Assembly (NCBI GenBank): GCA_029560215.1
Contig: JAKPZB010000078.1
Location: 1-48,142 of the forward strand
Direction: 5' to 3'
Length of the DNA: 48,142 bases
Source: Methanobacteriota archaeon
GTDB taxonomy: Archaea; Thermoplasmatota; Thermoplasmata; Methanomassiliicoccales; UBA472
Part shown: positions 1,264 to 20,933 of the stretch, piece by piece
How positions within the stretch are numbered: the first letter of the stretch is position 1
Layout of the letters: each line of letters opens with the position of its first letter
Translations under genes and position numbers: made by a program
Notes under the pieces: model-generated
Told to the model about the DNA's origin: nothing
Database searches by the model: none
Seen by the model: the letters and a program-made list of their open reading frames with translations, nothing else

Positions 1264-2181
1264 TTAGCGGACCTTGCCCTCCACCTCGGCCTTGGTCTTG
1301 ATCCGGATGATGGTGCTGTCGCCCAGGCGGCAGTCGGAGATGGTGGCGATCTCCTTGAGCTTGCGACCGTAGACATCCAGCTCCTCCAGCTCCCTGACGT
1401 GCTCCTTGTAGGGGATCTTGACCCTGAGACCGTCCACGTGCAGCACCACCGGGGCCGGACGCAGGCACTCCTGCACCGCGTCCATCCCCTCCAGGGCGTC
1501 CTTGACCTCCGAAGGGTGGACGAAGAGGGGGTCCTCCTCGATCTCCTTGCGGCGCTTGTCGATGACCTCCTTGACCCGATCGGCGATCTCCTCGAGCTTG
1601 GCTATCTCCTCGGAGCGCCGCATGCGCTCCACCTTGCGGCCGACGCCGCAGACCAGGGCCTCGCAGTGAGGGAGCGATTCCAGCTCCGGACCCACCACGG
1701 TCACCACCGGGATCTGGATGTCCTTGTAGAGGTCGATCTTCTCGTGGGTGACGCATTCCTTGAAGTTGCCGAGCATGAAGATGGCCGCGTCGTACTCCTC
1801 GATTATGGCCTTCTCCGCCGCGGATATCTGACAGGTCTTACGTCCGCGTCCCCGCGCCAGGCCCATCACTATGGTGATGGCCCCGTACCGGCGCAGATGT
1901 TCCGCAATATCGCAGATGGGGTGGGGCATGTGATGCCTTCCCAGGGTGGGGCCGATGACCGCTATCTCGGTTCCCGCCAAGGGCACCTCGACGATCTTCC
2001 CGCCCAGTTCCGCCGTCTTCTTCTCGATGAGCGGCCGGTCCTCGGCCGGTATGGCTATGGTCAGGGTGACCATCACCTGCACCTGGGTGCGCTGGAGCAC
2101 GAAACCTCCCACGTCGGCTATCAGATCGAGCAGTTCGTCGATCTTGTGGACCCCGCCGTCGAACATCAGTACTTCGTACAT
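1264..2181 (-). CDS. mmp7: Methanogenesis marker protein 7
   Basis: About 305 aa. The N-terminus MYEVLMFDGGVHKIDELLDLIADVGGFVLQ is typical of Mmp7. Position is last in the mmp3-6-5-15-17-7 operon, with a 1-nt overlap with the mmp17 stop. Confidence 0.8.
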   Translation of the reverse strand: MYEVLMFDGGVHKIDELLDLIADVGGFVLQRTQVQVMVTLTIAIPAEDRPLIEKKTAELGGKIVEVPLAGTEIAVIGPTLGRHHMPHPICDIAEHLRRYGAITIVMGLARGRGRKTCQISAAEKAIIEEYDAAIFMLGNFKECVTHEKIDLYKDIQIPVVTVVGPELESLPHCEALVCGVGRKVERMRRSEEIAKLEEIADRVKEVIDKRRKEIEEDPLFVHPSEVKDALEGMDAVQECLRPAPVVLHVDGLRVKIPYKEHVRELEELDVYGRKLKEIATISDCRLGDSTIIRIKTKAEVEGKVR

Positions 2182-2753
2182 CAGTCATCCTCCGGGCCCT
2201 TGATCATGTTGGCGTGCACCCTCTTGGCCTCCTCGATGAAATCGACGGTCATGCCATGCTCCGTGGCCACGATGGTCATCACGTTGTCGTTGAAGTACTC
2301 GTTCCTCAGCTTGAGCCCCTCGGGCAGAAGCCGCCACATGGCATCGAGCAATTGCGAGCGCACCTCCTCCTCCGGGTCCAGCTTCATGTCCGCCAGCTCC
2401 TCCATCGGGACGTCCTCCACGAACACCTCCAGCCGGGTGAGCTGCTGCACGCGCTCCCTGCCGTAGAGGCGCCAGAGGCTGGAAATGAGCCTGGGAGCGT
2501 ATGATTCGTCCTTGATGGTGATGAACGTCCCGCCTTCCTTGGACTCCATCTCCGCTATGTCGTAGACCGGGCGCTTGCTCCCGGAATGCTTTATGCGCAT
2601 GGATATGATGAACAGCGTCTGGTCCGGGCGAATGACGAAACGCACCTTCTCGACCATGGTGCTTATCCCCATGTCCATGAGGATCCGTTCCAGCAGCCAT
2701 TGGTACGACTCCAGGGCGTATTGCTCGGTGCCCTCCAGCTCGAATTCCACCAA
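2181..2753 (-). CDS. mmp17: Methanogenesis marker protein 17
   Basis: 190 aa, between mmp15 and mmp7, with size and order as in the conserved marker cluster. TTG/GTG start 4 nt after the mmp15 stop. Confidence 0.7.
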   Translation of the reverse strand: MVEFELEGTEQYALESYQWLLERILMDMGISTMVEKVRFVIRPDQTLFIISMRIKHSGSKRPVYDIAEMESKEGGTFITIKDESYAPRLISSLWRLYGRERVQQLTRLEVFVEDVPMEELADMKLDPEEEVRSQLLDAMWRLLPEGLKLRNEYFNDNVMTIVATEHGMTVDFIEEAKRVHANMIKGPEDD

Positions 2754-2757
2754 TCTC

Positions 2758-3981
2758 TCACCCCAGCAGGCCGGAGGCCAGCAGCGCCGCTCCTACCGCC
2801 CCGATGTACTGCGAGTCCCTGGGGACGATGGGACGCTGGCCCAGGGTGTGCTCCATGGCCGTGACCATGCCGGATATCAGCGAGGTGCCGCCGACCTGGA
2901 TGATCGGGCGGCGCACCTCAATCTCCTGCAGCTGCTGCTCGTATATCTGCTCGGCCACGCTGTGGCAGGCCGCGGAGGCCACGTCCGCCAGGGTGTTCCC
3001 GGCGGCCAGCGACGTGACCAGGTCCTGTATTCCGAACACGGAGCAGTAGGAGTTCATCTTGACCTTGCCGTGGTCGCCCTGGTCCGCCAGAGCGCCCAGT
3101 TCCGTGATCTCCACCTTCAGGCGTTTGGCGGTCATCTCCAGGAAACGCCCGGAGGCGCCGGCGCAGATGCCGCCCATGGTGAAGTTGTCCGGGATGCCGT
3201 CCCGGACGGTGATGGCCTTGTTGTCCATCCCCCCGATGTCGATGATGGTGGCCTCCCCCTTCTGCTTGCCGGCCAGCCACACCGCTCCCTTGGAGTTGAC
3301 GGTGAGCTCCTCCTGCACCAGCTTGGCATTGAACTTCTTTCCTAGCGTGTACCGTCCGTAGCCGGTGGTTCCGATCCCCTCCAGCTGCTCATACTTCACA
3401 CCGGCCTCGGCCAGGGCGTTGGTGAGGGCGGTCTCCGCGGAAGAGTAGACGTCGCCAGTAGGCAGCCAGTACTTGCCGATGATGACGTTGTCGCGCATGA
3501 TCACCGCCTTGGTGGTGGAAGATCCTGAGTCCAGTCCGGCGGTGAGGCCGACCTGCCTCTCCCTGGCCAGAAGCTCCTTCCTCTCCACGATGGTCACCAG
3601 CGCTTCCATCCTTGTGAGAAGCTGGGCGGCCTTGGTCCGCTCCGTGAACGAGTAGGTGACCACCGGCAGCCTCACGTGCTCCTGCACGAACTTCCTGAGC
3701 TCCGTTCGGACGAGAGCTCCCTCGGCGCAGCGGAAGCAGGTGGCGATGAATATGGCGTCCGCGTCATAGTTCTTGTTGGCCAGCTCGATGGCCCGGGCGA
3801 TCATCAGCTTCAGCTGGGGGCTGTTGGGGTTGAACCCGAACTCCTCGACCGCCTTGTCGATCTTCTGCATGTCCACGTCCGGGTAGACCATCTTGGCCCC
3901 CACGGTCTCCGCGGCGCGCTCGATCTCCGCCTGTACGCCGCTGTACTCCGTCCCGCAGGAAAGTTGGGCGATCTTGATCAT
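2758..3981 (-). CDS. mmp15: Methanogenesis marker protein 15 (BadF/BcrA/HgdC-type ASKHA ATPase)
   Basis: 407 aa. ASKHA phosphate-1 motif [14 protein letters not shown] and a second DIGGMDNK motif. ATGA overlap with mmp5. Confidence 0.85.
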
Positions 3982-4412
3982 TTCAGACCCTCCAGGAACT
4001 CCTTCACCCTGACCACCATGTCCTTGGCCTCATCCTCGTTGGAGGGGTAGTCCAAAGATAGTATCGGCACCTTGCGCTTGCGGACCAGGAGCTTGGCCAG
4101 TTCGTTGGTCCGTTGGCATCCCACGCACCCGAAGCTGTAAGGGGCGTCCTCCATGAATATGGCCGCTTCCGCCTGGTCGATGAGGGGGCCGTAGATGGCC
4201 AATCTCCCGCGTATTCCGGAAGGGATCTCTATCCCGGCGTACTTCAACCCTAGCTTGACATCATCCACCGTCACGTTCAGAGGCGGCGCCTCGATCTCGT
4301 TCGACGTGACGCGGTCGCGGAGGGCCTTCATCAGGCTGAGCGGTTCGTGGCCGAACCTCTCGACCAGATCGAATAGGATCAGGCTGTTCGGCGGCATTAT
4401 GAATATCTTCAT
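3978..4412 (-). CDS. mmp5: Methanogenesis marker protein 5
   Basis: 144 aa, translationally coupled (ATGA) to both mmp6 and mmp15. Size and position match the marker cluster. Confidence 0.7.
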
Positions 4413-4834
4413 GGGGACACCTCGTCGATGAGCTTCTTAAGGTCGTTGACCGGGATCTTCTGGCGTTTCTTTGGCGCGGGGGGCTTCTCGCCCTTCTCCA
4501 CGCAGATCAGGCCCTGTTCCACCAGGCACAGGTCCTTCCATTCCTTCTCCAGTTGGGCGAACCCGGGCCGGGAGCCGTGATGGGCCCGGCAGCGGCGGAG
4601 ATCGCCCATGGGGAAGGCGCGGATCTTGGAAAAGATGCGGTTGGGGTCCATCTTGCGAACCTCGTCCAGGGTGCGCTTCACCGCGTCCCTGGGGCCCTGC
4701 AGCACCACGCCGTAGCAGGTCTCCTTCACCGTGACCTCGTTGCCCAGGTTGTGCACGAAGCGGGCGATGCGGTCCGGAGTGAGGTCGGAAGTGGGGGCGA
4801 TGAATATCAGCCTGGTCTCTATGTTGCTGTCCAT
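4409..4834 (-). CDS. mmp6: Methanogenesis marker protein 6
   Basis: 141 aa, immediately after mmp3 (1-nt gap), ATGA-coupled to mmp5. Confidence 0.7.
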   Translation of the reverse strand: MDSNIETRLIFIAPTSDLTPDRIARFVHNLGNEVTVKETCYGVVLQGPRDAVKRTLDEVRKMDPNRIFSKIRAFPMGDLRRCRAHHGSRPGFAQLEKEWKDLCLVEQGLICVEKGEKPPAPKKRQKIPVNDLKKLIDEVSP

Positions 4835-4835
4835 C

Positions 4836-6482
4836 TCAATCCTCCTTGGGCTTGGACCTTTTGGCCGGGGCCTTCTTGGCAGCGGTCGTCTTCGGCTTCT
4901 TTGGCGCTTCGGCGCCCTCCTTTGGCTTCCCAGCCTTCTTTGCCTTCTTGACCGCGGATTCCTCGGGAGTGGCGCGGCGGATGTAGATGATGTCCTCCTC
5001 GGATATCCCGGACATCATGGCGTCCAGGTCTCCGACGAAACGCCCGAGCAGGTTGGTGCCCGGGATCTCCTCGCCGGTGGGACCGAACTCCTCGCTCTCC
5101 TCCAGGCGTATTCCCATGAGACCGCGCTGCGGTCGGGACATGTTGGTTATCGCCACGTCGCCGCGGACCGAGCGACCTTCGAACGTCCTCTCCGGATAAA
5201 GGTCGGCGGCCAGCTTGGGATTCCCTTCGAAAGTTATCATGGGCATCCCCTCGAAGGTGAAGTGCACCTTCATGGTGCCCACCGGCTTGTGGTCCAAGCC
5301 GGTGACCTTGCGGAAGTAGCGCACCGTCCACGGCGAGGCCTCGGGGTCCATGGTGAGCGGGTACACCTTCTCCCTGGGAACGCCCATGGTCTCGATCTCC
5401 CTCTCCTTGGAGGCGTGGATGGTCATCTCCGGCTCCTGCTCGACGATCACCGCCTCGTCGGAGGTGTCGCCGGTGCGCTTCTGGACCTTGCCAATGGATT
5501 CCAGGAACCTCTGCGCCTCGGCCTGGGTCTTGCCGATGGTCATTATCCTTACGGGGTCCGGCTGAACCAGCACCCTCCCCTTGAGCGGGACCAGATGCAC
5601 CAGGTTGTGGCCGTTGGTGACCTTCCCCACGGTGTTGTGGGAACGGTTCAGCTGGCGGACCTGGTTGTAGAAGTATATCTTCCCGGCCTGGTAGCCCTCG
5701 TGCCTTACGGTCACCGTATCCGGGTGGCGCACCTCGCTGTATTCCTGGCCCAGGGAGGTGTCCATGTTGGCCTCGCTGGCCGAGTAGCTGAAACCCTTCT
5801 CGTCTATCGGCAGGCTGCCCTCGCCGGTGACCACCAGGAAGTGCTCGCAGCAGAGCGGCGAACGCTCGTCCAGCTTCACCCCCACGAAGGTCTCTATGAG
5901 CATGCCGTCCTCCACCGGCACGTTGAGGTCGGTTACCGGGAAGGCGTCCTGGGAGGTCATGCGCAGCACCACCGGCTCGATGTGCTCGATGACATCCCCC
6001 TCGTCGAGAAGGTCCAGGATGTGCCTTCCCCTGGTGACCCGGCCGAACACGGCGTCCTGAAGGCCGAGGTCGTCGCTCATGTCCACCCGGGCGATCATGA
6101 AGTAGGTGGTGTTCACGTCGTAACCGCCCAAGGCGAAGAAGCAATCGTAGCGCTTGTAAGTGGAAGTCCCGCGGGACTTCTCCAGCTGCGTCGGGAAGGA
6201 ACCGAAAGCATGCAGGCGGCTGGTCTGCCAACGCAGATTCCTTCCGACCACGTCGTGATACAGGCGTTTCCAGGCCTCGGCGAAGACGCTCCCGTTCAGT
6301 TCGATGATGAAGCAGCCACGGGGAGTTTTCACCATGTATTCGTTGGTCAGCTTGCGCTGGGCGTCCAGAGGTCGGATCAGGGCCACCGAGCTGCCTGGAA
6401 CATAGGGCTCTCCAACGATGGCCTGGGCCACCGTCGCCCCGTCGGGCAGTACCTTCTCCTTGCCGTTCACGATAGCTCTCAT
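4836..6482 (-). CDS. mmp3: Methanogenesis marker protein 3, with an extra Lys/Ala/Pro-rich C-terminal tail
   Basis: About 548 aa from Met11 of ORF 4836..6512 (MRAIVNGKEKVLPDG..., preceded by GAGGGGG). Length and N-terminus are typical of Mmp3 (UPF0288). First gene of the marker operon. Confidence 0.8.
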   Translation of the reverse strand: MRAIVNGKEKVLPDGATVAQAIVGEPYVPGSSVALIRPLDAQRKLTNEYMVKTPRGCFIIELNGSVFAEAWKRLYHDVVGRNLRWQTSRLHAFGSFPTQLEKSRGTSTYKRYDCFFALGGYDVNTTYFMIARVDMSDDLGLQDAVFGRVTRGRHILDLLDEGDVIEHIEPVVLRMTSQDAFPVTDLNVPVEDGMLIETFVGVKLDERSPLCCEHFLVVTGEGSLPIDEKGFSYSASEANMDTSLGQEYSEVRHPDTVTVRHEGYQAGKIYFYNQVRQLNRSHNTVGKVTNGHNLVHLVPLKGRVLVQPDPVRIMTIGKTQAEAQRFLESIGKVQKRTGDTSDEAVIVEQEPEMTIHASKEREIETMGVPREKVYPLTMDPEASPWTVRYFRKVTGLDHKPVGTMKVHFTFEGMPMITFEGNPKLAADLYPERTFEGRSVRGDVAITNMSRPQRGLMGIRLEESEEFGPTGEEIPGTNLLGRFVGDLDAMMSGISEEDIIYIRRATPEESAVKKAKKAGKPKEGAEAPKKPKTTAAKKAPAKRSKPKED

Positions 6483-6598
6483 CTTGTCCCCCTCATGGAT
6501 GCAGTGCGGCAATTATAAGGTTATTCCCGAGCCGTTCAATCTGGCTATGGCTTTCGACTACCCTTGGCCAAGCACCTCTTCCTTGGGCCGCAGGGGAT

Positions 6599-7201
6599 GT
6601 GCAAGTTATGAATAACCGCAAGTCGCTGAACCGTGGTATGGAAAGGAACGCCGTCCGCGGAGCGGTGCGCGAGAGGATACTGGAATTGAAGGGCATCGAG
6701 GTCCTGGAGTACCTTGACCAGGACTTCCGCCAGGAGATCGAGCGGAGGGAGCGCGAAGCGGAGGGGAACGGCGCGGTGGGCGGACTGATGGCCTTCGTGA
6801 ACTCCGGGGTATGGGACGTGCTAACCCGGCAGGAGGTCTTCGTCATCGTGGCCCAGCCCCAGATGGAGATCCTCCATCCCCAGGAGCACCTGGTGCACAT
6901 CGTGGACCAGCGGGGGCAGGTCATCGGCGAATATCTGCCGGAAGGAAAACGGGACGACGTGGAACTGAGGGAGAACGCCTACCTGCTGAGCGAGGACTTC
7001 GTCCTCTACGGCGATGTGGACATAGTCGGAGAGCCGTACTTCCTGATCCCGCCCATGACCTTTCCCCCCTTGGAGGGAATGTCCGGCATCAAGAGATTGG
7101 TCAGCGCCAGCATCTCCACGGCCTCCGACGACTACATCCGCGGCCGGTTGGGTTACGGGGACACCAAATGCTGGACCCATCTGGTCGGTTACGACCTCTA
7201 A
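6599..7201 (+). CDS. Protein I cannot place in a family; paralog of 13182..13724
   Basis: The C-terminal half aligns by eye with the other copy: VIGEYLPEG...EDFVLY...[19 protein letters not shown]...LVSAS...THLVGYDL versus VIGTEILPGE...DDFVVF...KEFFLMPPVSFPELEQVPG...IVSCS...SILVGFDLS. GTG start at 6599, or ATG at 6608/6638. Confidence 0.6.
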
Positions 7202-7803
7202 GGCATGGTCCGCTTGACCTTGGCCACTATCTCGTCCAGCTTGGTCTGGCTGACCGTGGTGCCGCGCACCACGCCGGTGACGATCTCCATGATGGTGCCT
7301 TTGGTGCCGATGTCCTCGTCCTTGGGCATGACCAAACGGGTCTTGCAGCCGATGCGGGCGAAGTCCTCGAAGTCCACCGGGGCCTGGCAGCAGATGACCG
7401 CCGGCAGGTCCACGTTCCTGAGGATCAACCTGGCCTTGTAGATGATGTGGTTGCGGACGTTTCCCAGGTGTATGAGAGCGACCTTGAACTGCTGGATGCG
7501 GGCAACCTCTATGGGCTCCAGTCCGAAAAGGGAGCTGGTGGAGACGTCCACCGCGTCGGAGGGCACGCCGGAACCGGCGGTGATGACGATGACCGAGGTG
7601 TCGATGCCCTCCTCCCTCAGACCGTAGGTGATCTCGCAGACCGGCTTGGTGATGTGGCGTTTCCCGGGACCCATGGCCACGGCCACCACGTCGCGCCCGC
7701 TGTCGGAGATGGTGGCCCTCTGGGCCAGGCTTCCGCCCACGCCCATCCCCCGGGCCTCTCGGCATTCCACGAAACGGGTCTTGCGGCCGATGGAGTCCTT
7801 CAA
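7198..7803 (-). CDS. mcrC: Methyl-coenzyme M reductase operon protein C
   Basis: 201 aa. [25 protein letters not shown] and [24 protein letters not shown] are characteristic of McrC. TTG start 2 nt after the atwA stop. Confidence 0.9.
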
Positions 7804-7805
7804 GG

Positions 7806-9428
7806 TCAGACCTCGCAGACGTCGGACTCGTCGCCTTCCAGGTCATCCTGGGTCATGCCCTTCAGGACCTCCTGGGGGGTTCCCAGCGCCACCATCTTGC
7901 CGCTCTTCATGAGCGCCACCCGGTCGCAGCAGGCCATTATGAAATCCATGTCATGACTGACGATGAGGAAGGTCTCGTTGAGCTCCTTGCGAGCGTGCAG
8001 TACTGACTTCGCCACGGCCTGACGGGTGATGGGGTCCATGGTGCCGGTCGGTTCGTCGAGAACCACGAAGCGCGGCTCGATGATCATGGTCCTGGCCAAC
8101 ACTATGCGTTGCTTCTCGCCCACGCTCAAGGCGTCCGGGTAGGCGTAGAGGATGCGCTCCACCTCCTTGGCGGTGAAGCCGACCCCGCGCATGACCTGGA
8201 TGGCCTTCATCTTGGCCAGTTCCTGCGGGAGCTTCATCCCCAGGCATACGGTCAGGTTCTGAAGGACGGTGTTGAACGGATAGAGCGCGTTCTCCTGGTG
8301 CATGATACCGATGTACTGGGTGGCGCGGCCTCTGCCCTCCTCTCCCAGATCGGACATGTTCACCCAGTCGTCGCCGATGCGGACAAGAACATCGCCATGT
8401 GTGGCCGGGGTGATGCCGGATATCATCCGGGATAGCGTGGTCTTGCCCGCCCCGCTCAGCCCGATCAGCCCGAATATCTCTTTTTCGTTGACATCGAAGG
8501 TGACGTCGTCCACCGCCTTCACCACGCCGCGGACGATGGAATAGAAGTATTTCTTGGCGCCTTCCACGCGGATGACCGGCTGTCCGACCTGGACGTCCAT
8601 GTCCTTGTCCCTGACGAAAGTGACGTTGAAGGCCTTGGTGACCTCGTGGGGGGCGCCCTCGGCCTTGATCATCCCGTCCTCCAACCAGATGGCCCTCTGG
8701 GAAAGAAGCTCGATGGCCTTGGGCCAGTGGGAGGTGACCACCATGGCCATGCCCGTGTCATTGACCGCTTTGATGAGCGCCTTGTGAACGGTATCCGCGG
8801 TCTCCGGGTCCAGGGTCCCGGTCGGTTCGTCGGCCAGGAACAGCAACGGCTCGCGGGCCAGCTGCCTGGCCAGCACGGTCCTCTGCTTCTCCCCTCCGGA
8901 GAGGTCGCGAGCGATGTGCATGGTGCGGTAGGTCATGTTGACCATCTCCAGCAACTTGATGGCCCGCTCCACCTTCTTCTCGTCGGAATTCTCCCTCATG
9001 GACTCGAAGACGTTCTCGATGACGCTGAGATCGCCGTACAGCGCGAAGGTCCTCTGGAGCATGATGGCTATGCGCCCGCGCATGGCCATCCTAAGGGGGT
9101 TCCGTTCATCCAGGGCCCAGAAGTCGATCTCCACGGTCTTGGTGCCCTTCCCGCACTGCGAGCACTTGGCCCCGGGCGACGGCATGTCTATCCAGCCGCA
9201 GGATTCGCAATGATTTACCCGATAGATGATGCGCCCGGAGTCGGGTTTGTACTCCTTGTTGCCGCGCATGGCATTGATGAGGACGGACTTGCCGCTCCCG
9301 CTCCTGCCGATGAGCCCGAGAACCTCGCCGGTGCGGACGGTGGTGCTGATGTCCTTGAGCACCTGGTGACCATTGAAGCTCTTGGATACCTTGTCCAATA
9401 TGACGAGAACCTCTGAACCCTCGGGCAT
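7806..9428 (-). CDS. atwA: MCR system component A2 (double ABC ATPase)
   Basis: Two ABC cassettes (Walker A GRSGSGKS and GLSGAGKT; signatures LSGGEKQ and LSVGEKQ) and a CxxC...CxxC insert (CESCGW...CSQCG). About 540 aa, adjacent to mcrC. ATG at 9428 preferred over TTG at 9440. Confidence 0.9.
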
Positions 9429-9516
9429 CCTGTTTGCCAACGATTATGGCAGATATAATACTTACCCTGTTTAGAATGCCTGGCTTTAACAATTGGATGG
9501 TGTAAGATATTTATGG

Positions 9517-9533
9517 ATGGATTATATATCCAT
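9517..9533. promoter_or_regulatory. Palindromic operator candidate ATGGAT-TATAT-ATCCAT in the atwA / wHTH-gene divergent intergenic region
   Basis: Sequence ATGGATGGATTATATATCCATCC at 9513-9535. The same 6-N5-6 palindrome is present at 18414-18434 and 39705-39752. Confidence 0.6.
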
Positions 9534-9539
9534 CCCACA

Positions 9540-10502
9540 ATGCCAATGTCCTTCAATTCCTACTTTGCCGGGGGCCCCACGCCAAAGTTCAACGCCTATC
9601 ACATTTGGAAGGCGCATCAGGTGGTGGCCAAGGAAGGCCCCATCGGCCGGAAGGCCTTGGCCGACCTTCTGCAGATCGGTGAAGGCAGCACCCGGACCAT
9701 CCTAGACAAGATGATGCGGGAGGGCTCCATAGAGAGCTCGCGCCTTGGCATAACCATAACCGAGCGCGGCAAGAGGAAGCTGGACAACTCCGGCGTTGAG
9801 GTCAGGCAGATCGACCTGTCCGATCTTACGCTGGGAAAGTACAACTGCGCCGTGCTCATCAAGGGCGCGGCGGAACGGGTGAACCTGGGCTGCGAGCAGC
9901 GGGACGAGGCGGTGCGGGCGGGAGCGATCGGGGCGACCACCCTGGTGGTCCACAATTCTCGGATCGTGTTCCCGGGGGACGAGGAGTTCCCGGACCAATC
10001 GCTGGTGGCCCCTTTGAGGAACTATTTCCGCATGGACGACGGCGACGTGATCATCATCGGCTCCGCCTTCAGCTATGAAGCGGCGGAGAAGGGCGCGGTG
10101 ACCGCCGCCCTTTCGCTCGGGAACCTTTCCCGCCGATGCTGGAACGAGGGCACGAACATCTTGAGCCAGGATACCGAGGCGGACGATCTCCGGTGCCTGG
10201 CCCTGGCCATTCACGAGCTTCTCGGCCGCCTACCGGTCACCATGCGCTCCAAGAACCACCCGGGCGTCCGATGCGAGGATGGCGAGGTCATCGACATTCA
10301 TTTCACCGGGCCCATGTTGGAGGAGTCCATGAAGAAGGGCATGGTCATACGCCGGACATCCACCAGCGGTCCGTACCGCGGATTGCCCATCATCGCCGTC
10401 CCCATCATGCGCAAGAAGGAGGCCATAGCCTCCATCGCCACCATGGACCTGGGGAAGGCCACGCCGTCGGAGCTGCTGAGCCGGTTGGCCGAGCGGTCCT
10501 AG
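9540..10502 (+). CDS. Winged-helix (wHTH) protein with a large C-terminal domain of unknown function; putative transcription regulator
   Basis: N-terminal GPIGRKALADLLQIGEGSTRTILDKMMREG looks like a wHTH recognition unit. My tentative recollection is DUF4443-type N-terminal and DUF2111-type C-terminal regions (unverified). Start moved to ATG 9540 because ATG 9513 lies inside the palindrome. Confidence 0.55.
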   Translation: MPMSFNSYFAGGPTPKFNAYHIWKAHQVVAKEGPIGRKALADLLQIGEGSTRTILDKMMREGSIESSRLGITITERGKRKLDNSGVEVRQIDLSDLTLGKYNCAVLIKGAAERVNLGCEQRDEAVRAGAIGATTLVVHNSRIVFPGDEEFPDQSLVAPLRNYFRMDDGDVIIIGSAFSYEAAEKGAVTAALSLGNLSRRCWNEGTNILSQDTEADDLRCLALAIHELLGRLPVTMRSKNHPGVRCEDGEVIDIHFTGPMLEESMKKGMVIRRTSTSGPYRGLPIIAVPIMRKKEAIASIATMDLGKATPSELLSRLAERS

Positions 10503-12331
10503 AAGTAGTACCAGATGCTGCGGTACCGCTCCGGGTCCTCGCCCCTCTCGGCCAGGGCGGCCAGGAAGTCCGCGATGGGAACGTCGCGGTGCACGTAGGT
10601 GGGGGCCACGGCGATGTTCTTCTCCCAGGGATGAAACTCATAGACCCTTTCGCCCCGGGGGGTCAGTGATATCAGGTCGTGATGCTGCCAGGCGCGCAAG
10701 TGGTTCTTTCCCAGGGCGGGAATGTTGAAGACCGGTTCGTCGGTCCGGCTGAGCCCGGGAAGCAGCCTGGCCTCTTCCTTCCGTTCCTGCAGCAGCCGGG
10801 CGATGGGCACCCGGTACTCGGCCGTCTCCTCCTTACCCTTGGCGTTGAAGGTGTAGTATGGGTCGATCCCGATCTCCTTCAGCGTCGAGCGCAGCGCCAC
10901 CGTCTCGAAGCGCCGGCAGTTCTCCATGGTGAAGACCTGCTGGTTGTACACGGATATGCCCAGTCGGCGCAGGTCGCGGACCGCGGCGGCCGCTTCCGGG
11001 GTGATCTCGTAAGGATGTTCGAAATGGGTGACCAGGGCCAATTCTCGCTTCGGGGGGTCCTGTACCTCCGCCAACCCCTCCAGGAAGCCGTGGTCGATCC
11101 TCATCGGCAGCACCGCCGGCACCCTGGTCCCCAGCCGCAGCCGTTTGATATGGGGAATGGCCGCCAGCCTTTTGAGGAGGCGACGTAACTGAGTGTTCGC
11201 CAGCATGGCGGGGTCCCCTCCGGTGATGAGCACCTCGCTGACCGCCGGATGCTCCTCGAACCACCGCAGCGCCGCCTCGATCTTCTCGGGAGGGGCCATG
11301 GCGTCCTCGGACAGGACGCCTTCGATCTCCCAGTTCCTCTGGCAGTAAACGCAGATCTGGGCGCAGGTGTTGTAAGGTTTGAATATGGCTATCATGGGAT
11401 AGCGCCTGGTAACCAGGTCCACTGGCGAGGTCTGGCCTTCCATCATGAAGTCCAGGCTGGCCGAGGGGTCCGACCTGGACCTGAGGACCGCTCGCACATA
11501 GCTCAGCGGGGGAATGACCTGGGCGCGCACGGCGTGGTCCCATTTCCGCGAGGGCTCCCGGTCCATGAGCGAGAGGTAGTACGGGGTGATGCCGAAGGGG
11601 ATGCGGTTCTCGGAACAGAGGGTTATCGCCTGGCGCTCCTTGTCGGTGAGCTCGATCAGGTCGCCGATCACGTCCGGGGTCAGCATGACATTCCTCATCT
11701 GCCACACATAATCGTTCCAGTCGTCCATGTCGGCGCCCAGGTATTCCGTTATCCGGTTGCGGTTCTCGCGCCGCCTTTGGATCGCCCAAGGTTCCAGTCC
11801 GCTGGGATACCTGACCGTCCATTCGGCCACCGCCCCCGCCATTCCGTCCAGGTAATCCGAGCGCACGCGTCCCCCTTCCTGACCGCCGAGCGCGGTGAAG
11901 TCCGGAGCCTCCTGAAGCTCCAGCACCGGTTCTCCGGTGGTGCCCCTCATGATGTGGATGATGTCCTGTACGAAGGCTTGGCTCGCGCCCTCAAGGGAAC
12001 CCTGGGAGATGTCGAATAGAACCTGGAGAACGGATTCGCCGCTCACTCTCTCGTTTCGGGGAGACAGGAAGTTGCGCATCACCCGGATGCAATGCAGGGA
12101 GTTGGACCGTTCCAGGGCGTGGATGCGGCAATCCCTGGAATGCAACGCGGATTCCCTTTCCCTTAGCAGATCGAACACCGCGGCACGGGCAGACCTTAGG
12201 TCCTCGGCGGGACCCAGCGCGTCATGCAGCTGGGGATCGGTCGCCCATAACACGGTCTGTCCGATATCCTTGTTCTCGCTCCCGCCCTCGGCGGAAGCTT
12301 TCGCTGGGGTTCTCGTGTTGCGCATGACCAT
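10499..12331 (-). CDS. KamA-family (lysine 2,3-aminomutase-like) radical SAM protein with an N-terminal extension of about 200 aa
   Basis: CAQICVYCQRNW (CX3CX2C), flanking ITGGDP and the PYYTFNAKGKEE region typical of KamA-like enzymes. 610 aa versus the roughly 400-450 aa I recall for the family. Confidence 0.7.
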   Translation of the reverse strand: MVMRNTRTPAKASAEGGSENKDIGQTVLWATDPQLHDALGPAEDLRSARAAVFDLLRERESALHSRDCRIHALERSNSLHCIRVMRNFLSPRNERVSGESVLQVLFDISQGSLEGASQAFVQDIIHIMRGTTGEPVLELQEAPDFTALGGQEGGRVRSDYLDGMAGAVAEWTVRYPSGLEPWAIQRRRENRNRITEYLGADMDDWNDYVWQMRNVMLTPDVIGDLIELTDKERQAITLCSENRIPFGITPYYLSLMDREPSRKWDHAVRAQVIPPLSYVRAVLRSRSDPSASLDFMMEGQTSPVDLVTRRYPMIAIFKPYNTCAQICVYCQRNWEIEGVLSEDAMAPPEKIEAALRWFEEHPAVSEVLITGGDPAMLANTQLRRLLKRLAAIPHIKRLRLGTRVPAVLPMRIDHGFLEGLAEVQDPPKRELALVTHFEHPYEITPEAAAAVRDLRRLGISVYNQQVFTMENCRRFETVALRSTLKEIGIDPYYTFNAKGKEETAEYRVPIARLLQERKEEARLLPGLSRTDEPVFNIPALGKNHLRAWQHHDLISLTPRGERVYEFHPWEKNIAVAPTYVHRDVPIADFLAALAERGEDPERYRSIWYYF

Positions 12332-13102: not shown

Positions 13103-13181
13103 GGACCTTGAATCGCCTAGCAGGGATATTAACGATTGCGGAGAAACAACCTTTTTCTAACCACAGGGCATTAGGGTCGGC

Positions 13182-14097: not shown

Positions 14098-15762
14098 TTA
14101 CTTGGCGGGGATGATGGCGGTCCTCTCACCCATGGGCACGAACTCCCTGAGGCAGCCGCGACCGAACTCCTTGGTAATGTTCGCGAAGTCGAACGGGAGG
14201 TTCTTGTCGGCGAATGCGATCTTGATCAGGGGGCTGCACACGTAGGCGTCTCCGCGAGCCGCGTGGGGAGCCATGGCGATACCGGCGTATCCGCTCAGGT
14301 GACCCACGTTCATGGCGTAGTTCGGGAAGTTCGGACCGCGCAGCTCGTGCGGCAGACCCTCGTCGCTCCGGTAGGAGAACGAGTTGGACGCACCGCACAT
14401 GTCCTGCAGGTCGTATCCGTAGAACCCGAGCCTTCCGAGCCTCTCACGGTGCTGGTACATGGATAGGTACCAGGCATTGACACCCGCGTTGGCGTTACCA
14501 GTGGCCATGGCCACACCGATGCCGGTGGCGGCCGCAGCGACGGTCGCCCTCTGGGACCCACCGAAGTGGGCTTCCATGGCGGCCGGGTAGCGCTCGTACA
14601 TCTCCAGGGCGTAGGAGTTGATCTCGGACCCGAGCTTCTCGATCAGCTCAGTGGAGGGCTTGCTCTTGCAGAACCCGCCGTACTTGTCCTTGATGTGGTC
14701 CACGGCCCAGTAGGTGTAGTCCTCCAGGATGTCGTCGGTGTAGGCGGCGGTGGCGTACTGAGTGAACCCGACACCTCCGGACATGTAGGATCCGAGGTAT
14801 ATCTGGTCGAACACCACTGCACCCAAAGCGACAGTTTCCAGGGAGGCCCTGGCGGGGTCGTCCGGCTTGGTCCTGGTGCTCTGGACCATATCGGCCAGCA
14901 CACCGAACGGAATTCCACCGGGCTCGTTGGGGCCCCTGGCCCTCCTGGCGGGCATCATGGTACCCATCTCCACCACTGCGGCGTGCTTGGCGGCGAAGGC
15001 GAAGTCGGCGATCGCGGCTTCACCGGCGGCCAGCCGGTACGCGGTGATGAAGGCCATGGAGATCTGCATCGCAGAGTGCCTGGAGATCGTACCACCGTCG
15101 CACACGCGTCCGACGATGGACGGAACACGGACGACCTGCCACAGCTTCTTGCCGACAGCGGCCTTCAGCTGCTTGGCCTGGTCCGCGGGGAACTCCTTGT
15201 TGATGTCAATGACGAAGCACTTGTCGATCTCGTCGATCAGCTCGTCGTCGCCAGAGAACACCTTGACGTAGGAGTCCTTCACGATCTCAGGGCAAAGCTC
15301 GGCCATGTGCTCCTGAACCACTGCGCCGCCTGGCATGGTGTGGTTGACAGCTTCCAGGTAGCGGTTGATGGTCTCGGGGGTGACCTCCTTCGACAGCCTC
15401 TTCTCGATAACGTTGTGCGCGACATCCAGACCGACGATGACGGTCCTGCGGATATCATCCCAGGCCTGCTGCATCGCAGCGTTGTTGACCCAGTGCAGGT
15501 CATCGGCCTCGCCATAGATGTCCGTGTGGGACAGCTGGTAGGGCATCAAGACACGCTGGCCGAGAGCCACACCAATATCCTGGTTCATCATGGGGATCCC
15601 ACGGGCCTTGGCAATCTTGTTGGACTGCTCAACCCACTCCCGCTTCCTCTTCGACTGTCTCCAGCCTCCGTAGGAATAGTGCTTGGAGCGGACCTCCGTG
15701 GGGTCCTCCTTGAACTTCTTCTTCATGGCGGCGATGAACATCTTGTCCTTTTCCTTCGCCAT
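14098..15762 (-). CDS. mcrA: Methyl-coenzyme M reductase alpha subunit
   Basis: 554 aa with hallmark segments [32 protein letters not shown] and [17 protein letters not shown]. The sites corresponding to the modified His, Arg, Gln, Gly, Asp and Cys are all present. Confidence 0.98.
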
Positions 15763-15764
15763 AT

Positions 15765-16547
15765 TTAGTCCTCCTTAACATCGAAGGGCTTGAAGCCGCA
15801 CTTGGTCCTCAAGGTGTGGATCCTGAGGTTCTGCCTCATGACCTCCTCGTCCTCCCTCATGTCCACGCCGTCGGCGCGGAACATGGTGGTGTGCTCCTTC
15901 AACCACTTCTCGGGCATCGGCTTTCCGACCGCGACCGGCTTGTCCAGCGGGACACCGACCTGGTCCTTCACGTACTCGACCTCGCCCTTCTTCGCGTTCC
16001 ACCGGAACCTCTGCCAGGCGTCGAACATCATTCCGTTCTCGTCCAGCCTGACGGCGTGTCCGTGCACGGTCGCGCCTCTGATACCGGTTCTGGCGGTATC
16101 GAAGGTCTCGCCATCGATGAGTTCCTTGGCCACCTTTTCGACGTCCCTCTCCCTCATCTCGATGATCTGCCTTCCGGACAGGGTACCAGTGTCAATTCCC
16201 CGGTATCTGCACATGTACATCTGCGCCCTCACATACGGGACGATGGGGGCCCAGTACACGGAGTCAGTGAACTGAACGTACCTGATCCTGTCTCCCTTCT
16301 TCGCACCCTCCATGGGCTCGACCAAGGCCCGGATCGGGCAGTCGGGCTCGTTACCCTCGGCCAGCGGCGCGTGGATGGTGGCGTAGTCGGAACCGGGGAC
16401 ACGGTGTCCCAGGATCTTGACCACATCGTCCATCGGAATGTCGCGCAGCTTCTCCAGCTTGACGCTGGAGTCCATGAAGCGTCTGCGGTTCTTGGCGGGC
16501 AGGGTGTTGCCAGGATAGAGTTGTGCCTTGTACTTTGTCTTAGCCAT
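15765..16547 (-). CDS. mcrG: Methyl-coenzyme M reductase gamma subunit
   Basis: 260 aa. [21 protein letters not shown]...[19 protein letters not shown] is typical of McrG. Confidence 0.95.
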
Positions 16548-16548
16548 G

Positions 16549-16971
16549 TTATTTCACCAATCCTTTATTGTAGTCTGTAGTAGTTGGCTTGAACTTGTTG
16601 TAGCGACCTACCTCCAGAGTGAAACTGAAGGGTAGCACTTCCTTGCATACCTCCTCGATGTCCTTGAGAGCCTGGGGCACAAAGTCGATGTCGGCGATCT
16701 CGACGAAAACCCGACCGACCTGTATCTTAAGCTCTATGTCCTCCCCTCTGACCTTGATCTTCCTTCGTTCCGGATGGTTTACCGGACCGCCAGTGCCCGG
16801 ACCGGCCTTGATGACTGCGGGCAGGCCCTCGCCCTGGATGTTGATCTGCCTGACGTTCTTCACGGCGTACAGCTTGTTCAGCAGCACCTCCGTGGTGGAA
16901 GCCATCAGCAACCTCTCGGGGAATATCTGGATCTCGGGTAGGGGGACTCCCTCGAAGGCAGGCGTACTCAT
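16549..16971 (-). CDS. mcrD: MCR operon protein D
   Basis: 140 aa between mcrB and mcrG. IFPERLL...LLNKL...GEGLP...[18 protein letters not shown]...[14 protein letters not shown] matches McrD. Confidence 0.9.
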
Positions 16972-16973
16972 GT

Positions 16974-18302
16974 TCAGACCAGCTCCTTCAGTTTCTTGGC
17001 CTCCTTGCCTACCATCTTCATCGGGCTCTTGAACTCCGGGATCTCGCCGAAGATCTCCTTGAACACCAGGGAGGTGTTCTCAGCGCTGAAGTACTGGGTA
17101 CCAGCATCCAGAGCGCATCCGGCGGCGATGACGGGGATTACAGTGCCCTTCGCATGCCTAGTAACCACGTGGTTCCCGTGGAACAGTCCCGGACCGCCAC
17201 CACCATAGATGGAGTGGCTGAAGAAGGACATACCGACGGAAGTACCCATGGCCCTGCCGTAGTCTACACCGGGCAGGCTGGTCTCGTGCTCGATCAGGTC
17301 GTTGTAGTACAGAATGGTGGACGGAACACCCTGAGCGGCCCTTGCGGCGCCGATGTTCACGCAGATCGCGGCCAGCATACCAGCGGACACGTACGCGTTC
17401 CACAGCGGGAAGTCGTTGGTGGTGTACTCAACGAATCCGGAGGGGAACTTCTTTCCCTTCTTGATGACCTTGTCCTCTAAGGCCCTGCCGACAACGGAGG
17501 CAACGACGTCACCGACGGTGCCGGTCTTGCCGTTCTCCTTGACCCAGCTGTAGACCATGTTGTTGGCGTTCAGGCCCTGATAGGCCAGGGACAACAGGTG
17601 CTGCCTCTCGAAGTTGCCGATCGCGTCGCCCATCTCGTAGGCGGCGGCGGTCTCGTAGATAGAGGAGAGAGCGGCGGCGTTCATGGCGTTCCTGCCAGTC
17701 AGCATGACTAGGTGGTTGGCCATGATGTTCCTGAGGGCGTATCCAGTACCCTCGTTCAACTGCGGTACATCGAGAATGGTCTTAAGGTTGGACCCTTGCA
17801 TGTTGATGGTCTGCGGGTATCTGCCCCAGACGGCGGCCTTGACCATGGAAGCTTCGAACATGTTCACGTTGAACTGGTCGATGATTGCCTCGGTCACGGC
17901 GGCGGCAACGGTGGTGAACCCAGTGGTGTACTCGGCACCGGCGTCCATCCTGACGGACGGAACGGTGACGATCATCCTCTTGCCGTCAGCCATCGTCTCG
18001 ATCTTGGAGTCGTCGTCCTTGGCGGCCTTGACGATGTCAGCGATCCTCTTCTTCAACTTATCAGCGTTCGCCACGATAGCGAGGTCCAGGCTCCTGCCGG
18101 GAACATTCAATCCGCCAACCGCTCCGGTCTTGAGACCCTTCTCAATACCTTCGAGGTTGACAGCGATCGTTCTCTTCGTCAGAGAGATGGTTCGCTTAAT
18201 GGCGGCGTTGTTTAACGGACTCAATGCGTCGAGAGGCACGTCCTTTTCAATCAATTTGCCTCTGTCGTCATACAAGTCCACCTTGTCCTTGTATTTTGCC
18301 AT
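16974..18302 (-). CDS. mcrB: Methyl-coenzyme M reductase beta subunit
   Basis: 442 aa. N-terminus [30 protein letters not shown]. Strong Shine-Dalgarno element (GGAGGT) upstream. First gene of mcrBDGA. Confidence 0.95.
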
Positions 18303-18576
18303 TTTTTACCTCCTTTCAATAGCTCGGTCCCCTCAAGCAGACTTACATCAATCCTGAGAAAACCGGTACCCCTTGCGAACTCGACAATGTATAGTTAGAA
18401 TATAAGCTTGATGATGGATGGATAATCCATCCATATTAAACAATAGCTTAATTTTTGTCGCATCCCAGACAAAAATCGTTAAGTTTTAACGTCCTAAAAT
18501 TTTTTAATATTTTTATATTATAATATAATAGCCGCTTCGATTTTTAATTTATTTTCAACGAATGTTATAATAATAT
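18303..18576 (-). promoter_or_regulatory. mcr operon promoter and leader region
   Basis: A 274-bp very AT-rich spacer between tfuA and mcrB with several TATA-like boxes (for example TTATATT at about 18398-18404 on the minus strand, and TATAATATAATA at about 18510-18530) and the palindrome at 18414-18434. Confidence 0.6.
18414..18434. promoter_or_regulatory. Perfect 21-bp palindrome ATGGATGGAT-A-ATCCATCCAT (two overlapping ATGGAT-N5-ATCCAT units)
   Basis: Read directly from the sequence. Lies 112-132 nt upstream of the mcrB ATG. Confidence 0.65.
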
Positions 18577-19218
18577 TTATCGTTGTTCGCAAACGCCCTT
18601 AATGAATTTGAGGACGGTTATCGCGTCCTCCTTTTTAATATCTCGGTAATTCTCCGCAAAAAATCGGTCGAATGACTCGGCATTTTTATCGCCTACGATC
18701 CGTCGGGCCACCTCGCGGAACGCGGTCACCGTCCGGCGGGGATAGTAGATCGCGCGCATCTCGTTCATTATCCCGGCCCTCTGCTCGGCGTCGATGACGT
18801 CGGCCATCCACGCCTGGTCCAAAAGGATCCGCAGGTTCACCAGCGGTTCGGACAGCGGCTCCATGGTCTCCGGGTCGAACACCAACGCTACCTCGTCATC
18901 CCCCTGGACCTCGCCGTTGGCGTACATCCTGAAGATGTGTCCCACTCCGGTCATACCATAATGTCCCATCTCGGCCGCGCGCAGCGCGCCCATGCTCCCC
19001 CCGCCGATGACCTTCACCTTGCGGTTCAGGAGCGAAAGGATCTCCCGGTGCCCGACCGAGCAGCTCTGCAGGAAAACGCCGTCGATGATGCCGACCACCT
19101 CCACGCCTTCCAGATGCAGCAGGTCCCCCCTCTTCACCGGAGGACGGAAATCCGCGTCGAGCACTTCCCTGGCCTCGGACAGGGGAAGGCTCGGACCAAG
19201 GAACACCACCGGCCTCAT
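18577..19218 (-). CDS. tfuA: TfuA-like protein (partner of YcaO for McrA thioglycine formation)
   Basis: 213 aa. VFLGPSL...PPVKRGDL...VGIIDGVF...SVGHREIL...VIGGGSMGALRAAE is typical of TfuA. 4-nt overlap with ycaO. Confidence 0.9.
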   Translation of the reverse strand: MRPVVFLGPSLPLSEAREVLDADFRPPVKRGDLLHLEGVEVVGIIDGVFLQSCSVGHREILSLLNRKVKVIGGGSMGALRAAEMGHYGMTGVGHIFRMYANGEVQGDDEVALVFDPETMEPLSEPLVNLRILLDQAWMADVIDAEQRAGIMNEMRAIYYPRRTVTAFREVARRIVGDKNAESFDRFFAENYRDIKKEDAITVLKFIKGVCEQR

Positions 19219-20408
19219 GCCACCAGCCTCGGTCCCAGGCGGTCCATGTCCATGGCGTATATCTCCATTCCGGGGATGATCACTCGGACCACCGGGACCC
19301 CGAGCTCCGGCCTGGTGAGCTCGACCACGATCACCTTCTCGAACCCTCGTTCCATCAGATGGTCCAGCACCACCTCGATGTCCTCCAGGAGGTCCTTGGT
19401 GTCGAACTCCTCGAAGTCGGATATGCTGACCCCGTCGGACGGGGAGAAGTACATGGAGTTCATGCGCTTCATCCGCTCGTATCCAAGCGTGCGATTGAGG
19501 TCGGCCTTGGTGGTGTCCTCGCGGGCGCCGTGGATCTGCGTGCAGCGGCTCTGCGCCACCTCGGTGAGAGCGCGAATGGCCGCCACCCGGGGGCTCAGAT
19601 GGGTGCCCACGCCCAGGTTAAGCAGGGCGGGGTCCTTCATCCTCACGTCGTCCGCGGCCGCGGCGATGGTGGGGATCCCGATATCGCTGGTGAGGTCCTT
19701 GAGGTGCACCTCCACTCCCTGTTTGCTGAACTTCTCCAGGAGGTCGCTCACCACCGGGCAGTCGTCGCCCACCACGATCTCCCCGCGCGGTCTGCGCTTC
19801 GCCTCGCATATGGACCAGGCGTCCCGTTCGATCACCTCGCACATGGCGTGCAGGATGGCCTCCTCCAGATTGTTGCCGGAGGCCAGGCCGTTGGTGTTGC
19901 TCCGGAAGAGCTGGAGGTCCTTGTTCGATTCGTAAGGATGGTAAACCGCCCCGGCCGGCACCCAGATGTCCTCCCCCTCGATCAGGTCGTATCCCTTCAC
20001 CCAGGCGATGGGATGGTAGTTGACGTGGACGTTGATCATCTGCGGAAGGATGAGCGAGCGGGGGTCCACGGCGTTCTCCGAGGCCAGCATGTTCTCCATC
20101 AGGTCCCTTCTCAGCTTCTCGTCCTTGGGTTCGGCGGAGTACCGTTCCATGGCCTCCATTATGGCGGAGACCCGGGCCTGCTCCCGGCTGGCCCCCTTGC
20201 CGTTGTAAATGGATATGGCCCCTTCCTTGGCCCCCGGCCGGATGCTGGAGAACACCGGGATGCCGATGCGGTCCAGGTCGGTTATGTCCGCCACCCGGGT
20301 GATCCCGGCCGCGGGGAGCAGAGGCTCCACCCGCTTCAGGGTGGCCCTGGGGCTTATCGCCCGATGACCGTCCTTGGTATAGGTCTTGGGGACGGGGCGG
20401 AGTTCCAT
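19215..20408 (-). CDS. ycaO: YcaO-type ATP-dependent amide-activating enzyme (methanogenesis marker 1)
   Basis: About 397 aa from the ATG at 20408 (TTG at 20435 is possible). GITRVADITDLDRIGIPVF...IYNGKGASREQARVSAIMEAMERYS matches YcaO. Located directly upstream of tfuA and mcrBDGA. Confidence 0.9.
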   Translation of the reverse strand: MELRPVPKTYTKDGHRAISPRATLKRVEPLLPAAGITRVADITDLDRIGIPVFSSIRPGAKEGAISIYNGKGASREQARVSAIMEAMERYSAEPKDEKLRRDLMENMLASENAVDPRSLILPQMINVHVNYHPIAWVKGYDLIEGEDIWVPAGAVYHPYESNKDLQLFRSNTNGLASGNNLEEAILHAMCEVIERDAWSICEAKRRPRGEIVVGDDCPVVSDLLEKFSKQGVEVHLKDLTSDIGIPTIAAAADDVRMKDPALLNLGVGTHLSPRVAAIRALTEVAQSRCTQIHGAREDTTKADLNRTLGYERMKRMNSMYFSPSDGVSISDFEEFDTKDLLEDIEVVLDHLMERGFEKVIVVELTRPELGVPVVRVIIPGMEIYAMDMDRLGPRLVA

Positions 20409-20450
20409 GGGTGGGGAGAACCTCGGAGGAGTCAAAAAACTTTTGCGTGA

Positions 20451-20933
20451 TCAATCCCGGTGCCCCTCGCTCTCCGCCAACGGCACGGCGAGATCGAACA
20501 CGGCGTCCTCGTTGATCGGAATCCGCTCGATCAGGATGTCCACCTCCACCCGTTGCACATTGGGTATGTTGACGATCTTGTCCTGGATGAGATCGTAGAG
20601 ATTGTCCACGCTGCTGGAGTAGACCTCGCAGATCAGGGAATGGTCCCCGAACACCTTGTGCGCGTACTGGATGCCCGGGAACTTTTTCAGTTCGTCGATC
20701 ACCGCGCTCAGCGGCGAACCGACCACCTGCAGCCCGATAAGGGCGCGCATGAGGCCCAGCTTCCCGGTGTTCACCTGCATGGTGTAGGCGTTGACGTAAC
20801 CTTCCTCCTCCAGACGGGAGATTCGTCTGCTTACCGTGGCCTTGGACACCCCGAGCTTATCCCCGATGGTCCCCAGGTTCTCCCGGGCGTTCTTCCTCAG
20901 CATCCTGAGTATCTCTAGGTCGATGAGGTCCAT
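20451..20933 (-). CDS. Lrp/AsnC-family transcriptional regulator
   Basis: DLIDLEILRMLRKNARENLGTIGDKLGVSKATVSRRISRLEEEGYV (HTH) followed by a C-terminal RAM-like domain. ATG at 20933 preferred over TTG at 20948. Confidence 0.85.
   Translation of the reverse strand: MDLIDLEILRMLRKNARENLGTIGDKLGVSKATVSRRISRLEEEGYVNAYTMQVNTGKLGLMRALIGLQVVGSPLSAVIDELKKFPGIQYAHKVFGDHSLICEVYSSSVDNLYDLIQDKIVNIPNVQRVEVDILIERIPINEDAVFDLAVPLAESEGHRD

Follow-up and report, generated by a model that had tools for sequence, protein, structure and literature searches.

A palindrome conserved at promoters of mcrBDGA, corrinoid-protein operons and a winged-helix protein gene in Methanomassiliicoccales is a probable transcription-factor operator

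Here, we describe a short palindrome, with TGGAT-N5-ATCCA as its core, that lies at the promoters of the mcrBDGA operon, of a corrinoid-protein gene and of a gene for a winged-helix protein, hereafter REG, in a 48,142-nucleotide stretch of archaeal DNA (the window), and that is conserved at the orthologous promoters of related Methanomassiliicoccales. The palindrome is very probably the operator of a transcription factor. We suggest that the operator belongs to a one-component transcription factor conserved in this order, most likely REG itself, and we favor, by a modest degree of confidence, a model in which REG binds the palindrome, represses its own gene and activates the mcr and corrinoid operons. 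The type of system, i.e., regulator, operator and regulon, is classical; the specific pairing proposed here, with its targets, has apparently not been described before. The sequence-only reading of the window had not recognised the motif as a described archaeal operator, and in agreement with it we found in the literature no mcr operator or mcr regulator for Methanomassiliicoccales. The outcome is a testable pairing of a 15–21 bp operator with a candidate sensor-domain regulator and a small predicted regulon comprising REG, mcrBDGA and selected corrinoid/methyltransferase operons.

The window belongs to a member of the Methanomassiliicoccales; its best homologs are in MAGs of this order, and its base composition is ~60% G+C. 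Exact matches to ATGGATNNNNNATCCAT (ATGGAT-N5-ATCCAT) start at positions 9517, 18414, 18418, 39705 and 39736, i.e., there are five matches, whereas 100 dinucleotide shuffles lead to an expectation of 0.01 and in no case gave as many. The earlier statements that the copies exceed chance and that all of them lie in AT-rich intergenic DNA are both borne out, the hosts being the gap between atwA and the winged-helix gene (9429-9539), the region upstream of mcrB (18303-18576) and the region upstream of the corrinoid-protein gene (39639-39799). Pfam matches likewise confirmed the gene identities given before, namely AtwA/A2, McrB, a B12-binding protein and a winged-helix protein with DUF4443 and DUF2111 (Table 1). 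Allowing up to two mismatches adds, in the window, just register shifts of the known sites and weak matches at 27720 and 36772. The real unit exceeds the pattern first noticed: all four sites fit GGATGGAT-N5-ATCCAT, and the TGGAT-N5-ATCCA core is accompanied by additional GGAT/ATCC quarter-repeats. Because GGAT and ATCC are repeated in tandem, each site has both a TGGAT-N5-ATCCA and a TGGAT-N9-ATCCA register. The distance between the two sites of the corrinoid-protein gene corresponds to about three helical turns, and paired sites at this 31-bp spacing are retained in three related loci (L081, L082 and L083).

Table 1. Genes, promoter elements and palindromic sites of the window
Feature	Position	Strand	Remarks
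atwA (component A2), two ORFs, mmp3, mmp6, mmp5, mmp15, one ORF, mcrC	1264-9428	minus	Assigned by Pfam; given in order of transcription, atwA first
TATA-like box of REG, GATATTTA	9506-9513	plus	Immediately 5' of the palindrome
Putative operator at REG, ATGGATGGAT-TATAT-ATCCATCC	9513-9535	both	Between the TATA-like box and the start codon of REG
REG, PH0730-like/CggR-like winged helix + DUF4443 + DUF2111, 320 aa	9540-10502	plus	Assigned by Pfam
mcrB-mcrD-mcrG-mcrA operon	14098-18302	minus	Assigned by Pfam; inferred target of the palindrome
Start-region element of mcrB, GCAAGGGG	18369-18376	minus	At the predicted transcription start; 5' UTR of ~74 nt
TATA box of mcrB, CTTATATT	18399-18406	minus	TTATAT conserved in all mcrB upstream regions
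Putative operator at mcrB, perfect 21-bp palindrome ATGGATGGAT-A-ATCCATCCAT	18414-18434	both	Holds two overlapping exact matches; ends 7 nt before the mcrB TATA box (BRE position)
lrp/asnC, ycaO, tfuA	18577-20948	minus	Assigned by Pfam; upstream of mcrB; Lrp/AsnC protein itself at 20451-20948
B12-binding corrinoid-protein gene	39003-39638	minus	Assigned by Pfam; followed by genes for an ArsR-like HTH protein (38076-38912), orf454 and a hydantoinase-like protein
TATA box of the corrinoid-protein gene, TTTATTA	39687-39694	minus	TTTAT/TTTAA conserved 12 nt after the palindrome in relatives
Putative proximal operator at the corrinoid-protein gene, plus strand TGGATGGATGGAT-GAGAC-ATCCAT	39698-39721	both	In gene orientation ATGGAT-GTCTC-ATCCATCCATCCA, then AGGG and the TATA box TTTATTA
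Putative distal operator at the corrinoid-protein gene, TGGATGGAT-TATTC-ATCCAT	39733-39752	both	31 bp from the proximal site

Three lines of evidence support that the palindrome is an operator. First, it is a dyad with a preferred spacing that occurs above chance. We collected the DNA around REG from GTDB species representatives by means of a REG-homolog profile (the REG set; 80 loci, 1.21 Mb; nearly all titles name Methanomassiliicoccales, with three bacterial bin names and a few names at phylum or class level only). In this set, TGGAT-Nx-ATCCA with x from 0 to 20 has 81 matches at N5, 79 at N9, 10 at N1, nine at N13, and zero to five at each of the other spacings; the N1 and N13 enrichment stems from the 4-bp repeat. 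An independent set, made up of metagenome contigs that encode relatives of the corrinoid protein (the corrinoid set; 80 loci, 446 kb), repeats this pattern, with 35 matches at N5, 32 at N9 and zero to five at the others. The spacing preference serves as an internal control, and base composition cannot explain it. Second, the site has a fixed place relative to core promoter elements at the REG, mcrB and corrinoid promoters. Third, orthologous promoters keep the site while their flanks diverge. Among Methanomassiliicoccaceae-like loci, an exact site precedes REG in 48 of 51 orthologous loci and mcrB in 27 of 30, so that its conservation in orthologous mcrB promoters is upheld; the remaining loci have it in 9 of 22 and 3 of 12 cases, respectively. 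When 23 REG promoters were aligned with MAFFT and anchored on the ATG, only GGATGGAT and ATCCA were invariant and the flanks diverged. Gut-type Methanomethylophilaceae have no site at mcrB and, at REG, just the N9 register (TGGATG-N7-CATCCA), and a termite-gut clade (L066-L068, L073, L076) has no site before REG.

A conserved palindrome could also be something other than a protein operator, i.e., a MITE-like repeat, a hairpin of 5' leader RNA, or a restriction or methylation motif. The palindrome is a perfect inverted repeat for which a hairpin is possible, and GGATG resembles known restriction-enzyme sites. We nevertheless hold an explanation of this kind to be highly improbable. The sites of the REG set (1.21 Mb) form 89 clusters. 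Of these, 87 are located immediately in front of REG or at a distance of 107-170 bp ahead of mcrB, i.e., in two promoter contexts. Conservation extends over only ~20 bp with divergent flanks, and copies in coding DNA are at chance level in this set; the motif does not behave here as a dispersed repeat. The two remaining clusters, L013:1073 and L016:543, have nearly identical sequences; at least the former is a lone N9 match within an ORF, and such non-promoter matches are consistent with background. The window has no Rfam match, and a hairpin is disfavored because the sites at mcrB and at the corrinoid-protein gene lie upstream of the TATA box and so are probably not transcribed. Moreover, in the related loci the arms of the palindrome are constant and the spacer is variable, which points to base-specific contacts by a protein and not to a structure kept by compensatory changes.

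REG is transcribed divergently from the atwA...mcrC operon. Across the related REG loci, a TTTAA, TTTAT or TTATA box stands immediately 5' of the palindrome as it does in the window; the end of the palindrome is 6-8 nt from the REG ATG in 48 of 50 related loci; and the promoter is without a Shine-Dalgarno sequence. From the box 5' of the palindrome and the lack of a Shine-Dalgarno sequence, we predict a leaderless REG mRNA with the operator between TATA and start, and the usual archaeal TATA-to-start distance predicts that transcription would begin ~1-4 nt before the ATG. In 48 of 51 orthologous promoters, the palindrome lies between the TATA-like box and the ATG and, with the start so placed, would overlap the core promoter of the putative regulator itself. 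Judged by analogy, the palindrome clearly occupies a repressor position here. MDR1, LrpA and Phr are archaeal repressors that block the recruitment of RNA polymerase from such a position. A site that is fixed to the core promoter of a regulator's own gene is the usual signature of autoregulation, and an operator at the REG promoter would likewise fit control by another factor.

In the window, the TATA box of atwA lies at 9453-9460, 54 bp from the palindrome. Among the loci, the distance from the palindrome to atwA ranges from 74 to 413 bp, whereas that to REG is constant at 6-8 nt. Furthermore, atwA promoters that do not adjoin REG (L045, L046, L048 and L051) have no site within 300 bp, even if one mismatch is allowed. 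Because the distance to REG is constant, that to atwA varies and separate atwA promoters are without a site, the copy at 9517 is best read, on the sequence evidence, as the operator of REG itself. The sequence-only reading had correctly located this copy between atwA-mcrC and the winged-helix gene and had missed its likely role as that regulator's own operator. Its assignment of the MCR activation genes (atwA-mcrC) to the regulon is not supported, since the site tracks REG and not atwA; regulation of atwA...mcrC would still be possible where the atwA and REG promoters lie close to each other.

The arrangement at the other two promoters is different in that the palindrome lies upstream of the TATA box. 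In gene orientation, the mcrB promoter reads ...cgATTGTTTAnn-[TGGATGGAnnATCCATCCAT]-CATCAAG-CTTATAT-(~25 nt)-GCAAGGGG...GGAGG-ATG. TTATAT and GCAAGGGG are kept in every mcrB upstream region, clades without the palindrome included; because they persist without it, we take TTATAT for the TATA box and GCAAGGGG for the start region, and with these elements so placed, the palindrome abuts the BRE position from upstream. The ATCCA pentamer is 9 or 13 nt from the mcrB TATA box, depending on the register, and the extended arm ATCCATCCAT ends ~5-7 nt before TATA, reaching the BRE position. Related corrinoid promoters read TGGAT-N5-ATCCATCCAT-(a/c)AAAG-cCTTTAT, and in 22 of 28 of them the distance from ATCCA to TATA is 12 nt. 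As a separate observation, GCAAGGGG(A) is found ~25 nt downstream of the mcrB TATA box order-wide (L001-L080) and, judged from its sequence and place, is probably an initiator or the start of a long 5' UTR of ~74 nt or more.

By analogy, this rigid placement 12-13 nt from TATA suggests that the site at mcrB and at the corrinoid genes is in an activator position. Ptr2 of Methanocaldococcus, TFB-RF1 of Pyrococcus and EarA of Methanococcus are activators that recruit TBP/TFB from sites just upstream of BRE/TATA, the same position as that of the palindrome at mcrB and the corrinoid genes, and Ptr2 can also have two sites. They differ in belonging to other protein families (Lrp/AsnC, TrmB-like and others) and in their motifs, and activation by REG is proposed from the shared position. 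Alternatively, REG may bind and repress every target, by hindering TFB at the BRE, with ligand binding relieving repression. Many archaeal winged-helix regulators are repressors, the site at the REG promoter is in a clear repressor position, the ATCCATCCAT arm ends at the BRE position ~5-7 nt before TATA, and a site that abuts the BRE could also repress. However, the sites of classical archaeal repressors are found over TATA/BRE or downstream of these elements, whereas the pentamer core at these promoters is upstream of the BRE, as with activators of the Ptr2, TFB-RF1 and EarA type; moreover, the mcr operon normally ranks among those with the highest expression. We therefore consider repression of all targets unlikely and prefer the model in which REG acts with opposite sign at its own promoter and at its targets.

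In this model, we infer the identity of the binder, the transcription starts, the sign of regulation and the sensing of a ligand. We suggest that a REG dimer contacts the two pentamers, which are one helical turn apart. At its own promoter, bound REG would sit between TATA and the leaderless start and, because the site fills this gap, would block recruitment of RNA polymerase, resulting in negative autoregulation. At mcrBDGA and several corrinoid/methyltransferase operons, REG bound upstream of BRE/TATA would help to recruit TFB/TBP and thereby activate transcription. The GAF/Cache-like C-terminal domain(s) of REG may couple this control to a small molecule or to a redox signal. The coexistence of the N5 and N9 registers is not explained by a simple rigid REG dimer.

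REG is the best candidate for the binder because the most conserved copy of the palindrome is locked to its own core promoter and because of synteny, its winged helix and a model of its sensor fold. With regard to synteny, the gene order mcrC<-...<-atwA, REG->, mcrA<-G<-D<-B, tfuA/ycaO/lrp is kept order-wide in the 80 REG loci, so that REG sits between the atwA...mcrC and mcrBDGA operons throughout Methanomassiliicoccales. A comparative-genomics paper on the order mentions only an ~16-kb cluster of methanogenesis markers (PMC4153887). In the window, a gene for a 610-aa radical SAM protein of the KamA family (aminomutase-like; 10499-12331, minus strand) is convergent with REG and lies between REG and mcrA; a KamA-family gene has this place in L001-L012 and L055, the closest relatives, and in no other locus.

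A different factor might bind the palindrome, with REG merely among its targets; the Lrp/AsnC protein (20451-20948), the ArsR-like protein (38076-38912) and an unlinked factor come into question. A 5-N5-5 geometry is typical of sites for the Lrp family, to which the activator Ptr2 belongs, which binds upstream of BRE/TATA, and this geometry of the palindrome would suit an Lrp-type binder; in addition, lrp is syntenic with mcrB in most loci. However, 0 of 89 sites are near lrp, and the lrp promoters bear another conserved motif, GAAACATTGT/GGAACAATGTTGC, and no TGGAT site. From sequence, then, the Lrp/AsnC protein would not autoregulate through the motif that it is supposed to bind. The ArsR-like gene is present in the closest relatives only, whereas the site is order-wide, and for any other binder it would have to be explained why the most conserved copy is fixed to the core promoter of REG. 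We thus judge a binder other than REG to be improbable.

A second motif, TTAACRAT/ATYGTTAA, is found beside the palindromes on their promoter-distal side, at 9486-9493, 18475-18482 and 39771-39778. The window holds four matches as against 0.77 expected, three of which adjoin the putative operators and the other lies at 13129-13136; enrichment over permuted 8-mers is modest only. In mcrB promoters, 'cgATTGTTTA' abuts the palindrome; in atwA promoters (L013/L015), the arrangement is ATYGTTAA-N5-TTAACGAT followed by CATCTGG; and the lrp promoters of L013-L059 carry the similar GAAACATTGT/GGAACAATGTTGC. Judged by these resemblances, the second motif may serve the syntenic Lrp/AsnC protein as its operator, in which case it would tie atwA, mcrB and lrp together.

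REG has 652 homologs, and each one with a source name is from Methanomassiliicoccales. The best structural match of REG domains 1-2 is PH0730 of Pyrococcus horikoshii (PDB 2p8t; E 5e-22, TM-score normalised to the target 0.75), which shares the PH0730-like_N winged helix and DUF4443 with REG and is without DUF2111. To our knowledge, PH0730, which comes from structural genomics, has neither a known function nor a known operator. The winged helix of REG superimposes on DNA-bound CggR with an rmsd of 0.7-0.9 A over 62-64 aligned positions, consistent with a Pfam CggR_N match; REG is without the C-terminal sugar-phosphate-binding domain of the SorC/CggR family, its Pfam domains being a CggR_N-like winged helix, DUF4443 and DUF2111. 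CggR itself acts as a repressor in bacteria and recognises another operator. DUF2111 was modeled with a pLDDT of 87.6 and matched sensor domains of the GAF, Cache and PAS-like types with query-normalised TM-scores of 0.5-0.6; by this fold resemblance, the C-terminal domain of REG models as a GAF/Cache-like sensor fold. REG would therefore, as modeled, combine a DNA-binding and a sensor domain in one polypeptide, as a one-component regulator does. The DUF2111 family is very small, with 74 representatives at 50% identity in an exhaustive search of 1.84 billion proteins (a word-indexed search with DUF2111 alone returned just 11 fragments, and family size was taken from the exhaustive search instead). 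It includes stand-alone forms of 110-140 aa in other methanogens, one of them in Methanofervidicoccus abyssi. In the full text of the literature, we found no paper that mentions DUF2111 or DUF4443.

Four loci (L052, L054, L056 and L062) encode REG paralogs with 44-51% identity. Their genes adjoin ramA, mtaA-like and corrinoid genes or a second mmp15-mmp5-mmp6 set, and none of them is preceded by a TGGAT palindrome. The lack of a site before these genes, as before REG in the termite-gut clade and at mcrB in gut Methanomethylophilaceae, speaks against the REG model. Orthologs keep GEGSTRTIL and the TGGAT half-site; paralogs have GEGSVR in place of GEGSTR in this helix. In a single case, a paralog-linked corrinoid promoter (L052:16265) has GGGAT-N5-ATCCC in the same place relative to TATA. 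As a general half-site family of the paralogs, GGGAT-N5-ATCCC was rejected: of its 10 matches, eight lie within mcrB coding sequence and one in a promoter, that in L052.

The sites at the corrinoid-protein gene are conserved as well. Among 24 orthologs with 60-95% identity and adequate upstream DNA, 19 have an exact site and 23 have one with at most one mismatch, at 52-84 nt before the start codon. The gene had been called an orphan; instead, a cluster that other genomes also keep begins with it. In L081-L105, this cluster comprises genes for a metallophosphoesterase, (a radical SAM protein), the corrinoid protein, (an ArsR-like protein), (orf454), a hydantoinase-like protein, an MtaA-like protein and RamA, and we consider it a putative methyltransferase system. 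In the window, the cluster (34639-39638, minus strand) consists of genes for the corrinoid protein, the ArsR-like HTH protein, orf454, which has no Pfam match, and a 673-aa hydantoinase/oxoprolinase-like protein with a weak match to MutL, the B12-mutase partner. Genes for an ArsP permease and an SBF/ACR3-type transporter follow in the window, where other genomes have MtaA-like and RamA genes.

The site also precedes several paralogous pairs of genes for a corrinoid protein and a URO-D-type methyltransferase, as well as one mtaC-mtaB operon (L140). By contrast, the mtmCB operon that adjoins REG in L161 has no site even with one mismatch, and the predicted regulon is therefore selective. The notion of a dedicated methanogenesis regulon is largely borne out for mcrBDGA and the corrinoid gene, which have conserved promoter sites, and is unsupported for atwA-mcrC, as the site beside it tracks REG; throughout, binding and regulation are predicted. 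In L113, a corrinoid/URO-D pair has on its downstream side, at position 6054, a site of standard architecture, TGGATGCGGCATCCATCCAT-AATAGAC-CTATATAA, which points to a gene truncated by the contig end.

Among binders of mcr promoters, the literature gave us a single candidate, IMPDH VII (MTH126) of Methanothermobacter thermautotrophicus, a protein with a winged helix and CBS domains for which binding to the mcr promoter has been reported and a role in mcr regulation proposed (PMC3087415). IMPDH VII resembles REG in joining a winged helix to a sensor, and differs in having a CBS pair instead of DUF4443/DUF2111 and in belonging to a different order. We know of no palindrome of the present kind for IMPDH VII. 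In Methanosarcina, a methylotrophic methanogen, dedicated Msr regulators control methanol methyltransferase (mtaCB) operons. Their protein family is unrelated, and no control of mcr is known for them, whereas the palindrome links mcr with methyltransferase operons, one mtaCB operon (L140) among them.

A more far-reaching reading, which we offer tentatively and regard as possible rather than probable, is that REG is the first dedicated master regulator of MCR expression in any methanogen, that with a methanogen-restricted sensor family it senses a methanogenesis-specific signal, such as the CoM/CoB heterodisulfide, methyl-CoM, F430 or the corrinoid state, and that it coordinates MCR with methyl transfer by way of one position-dependent operator. 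The model preferred here, in which REG represses itself and activates mcr and corrinoid operons, would give a function to DUF4443 and DUF2111. Methanomassiliicoccales include gut and rumen methanogens, and the pairing of REG and palindrome might be used to control their gene expression or to mitigate methane.

Two further features were noted in the window. A G+C-rich intergenic stretch downstream of mcrC (240-500) has many short complementary runs and is without an Rfam match at gathering thresholds, and a tRNA-His gene is present at 48057-48132.
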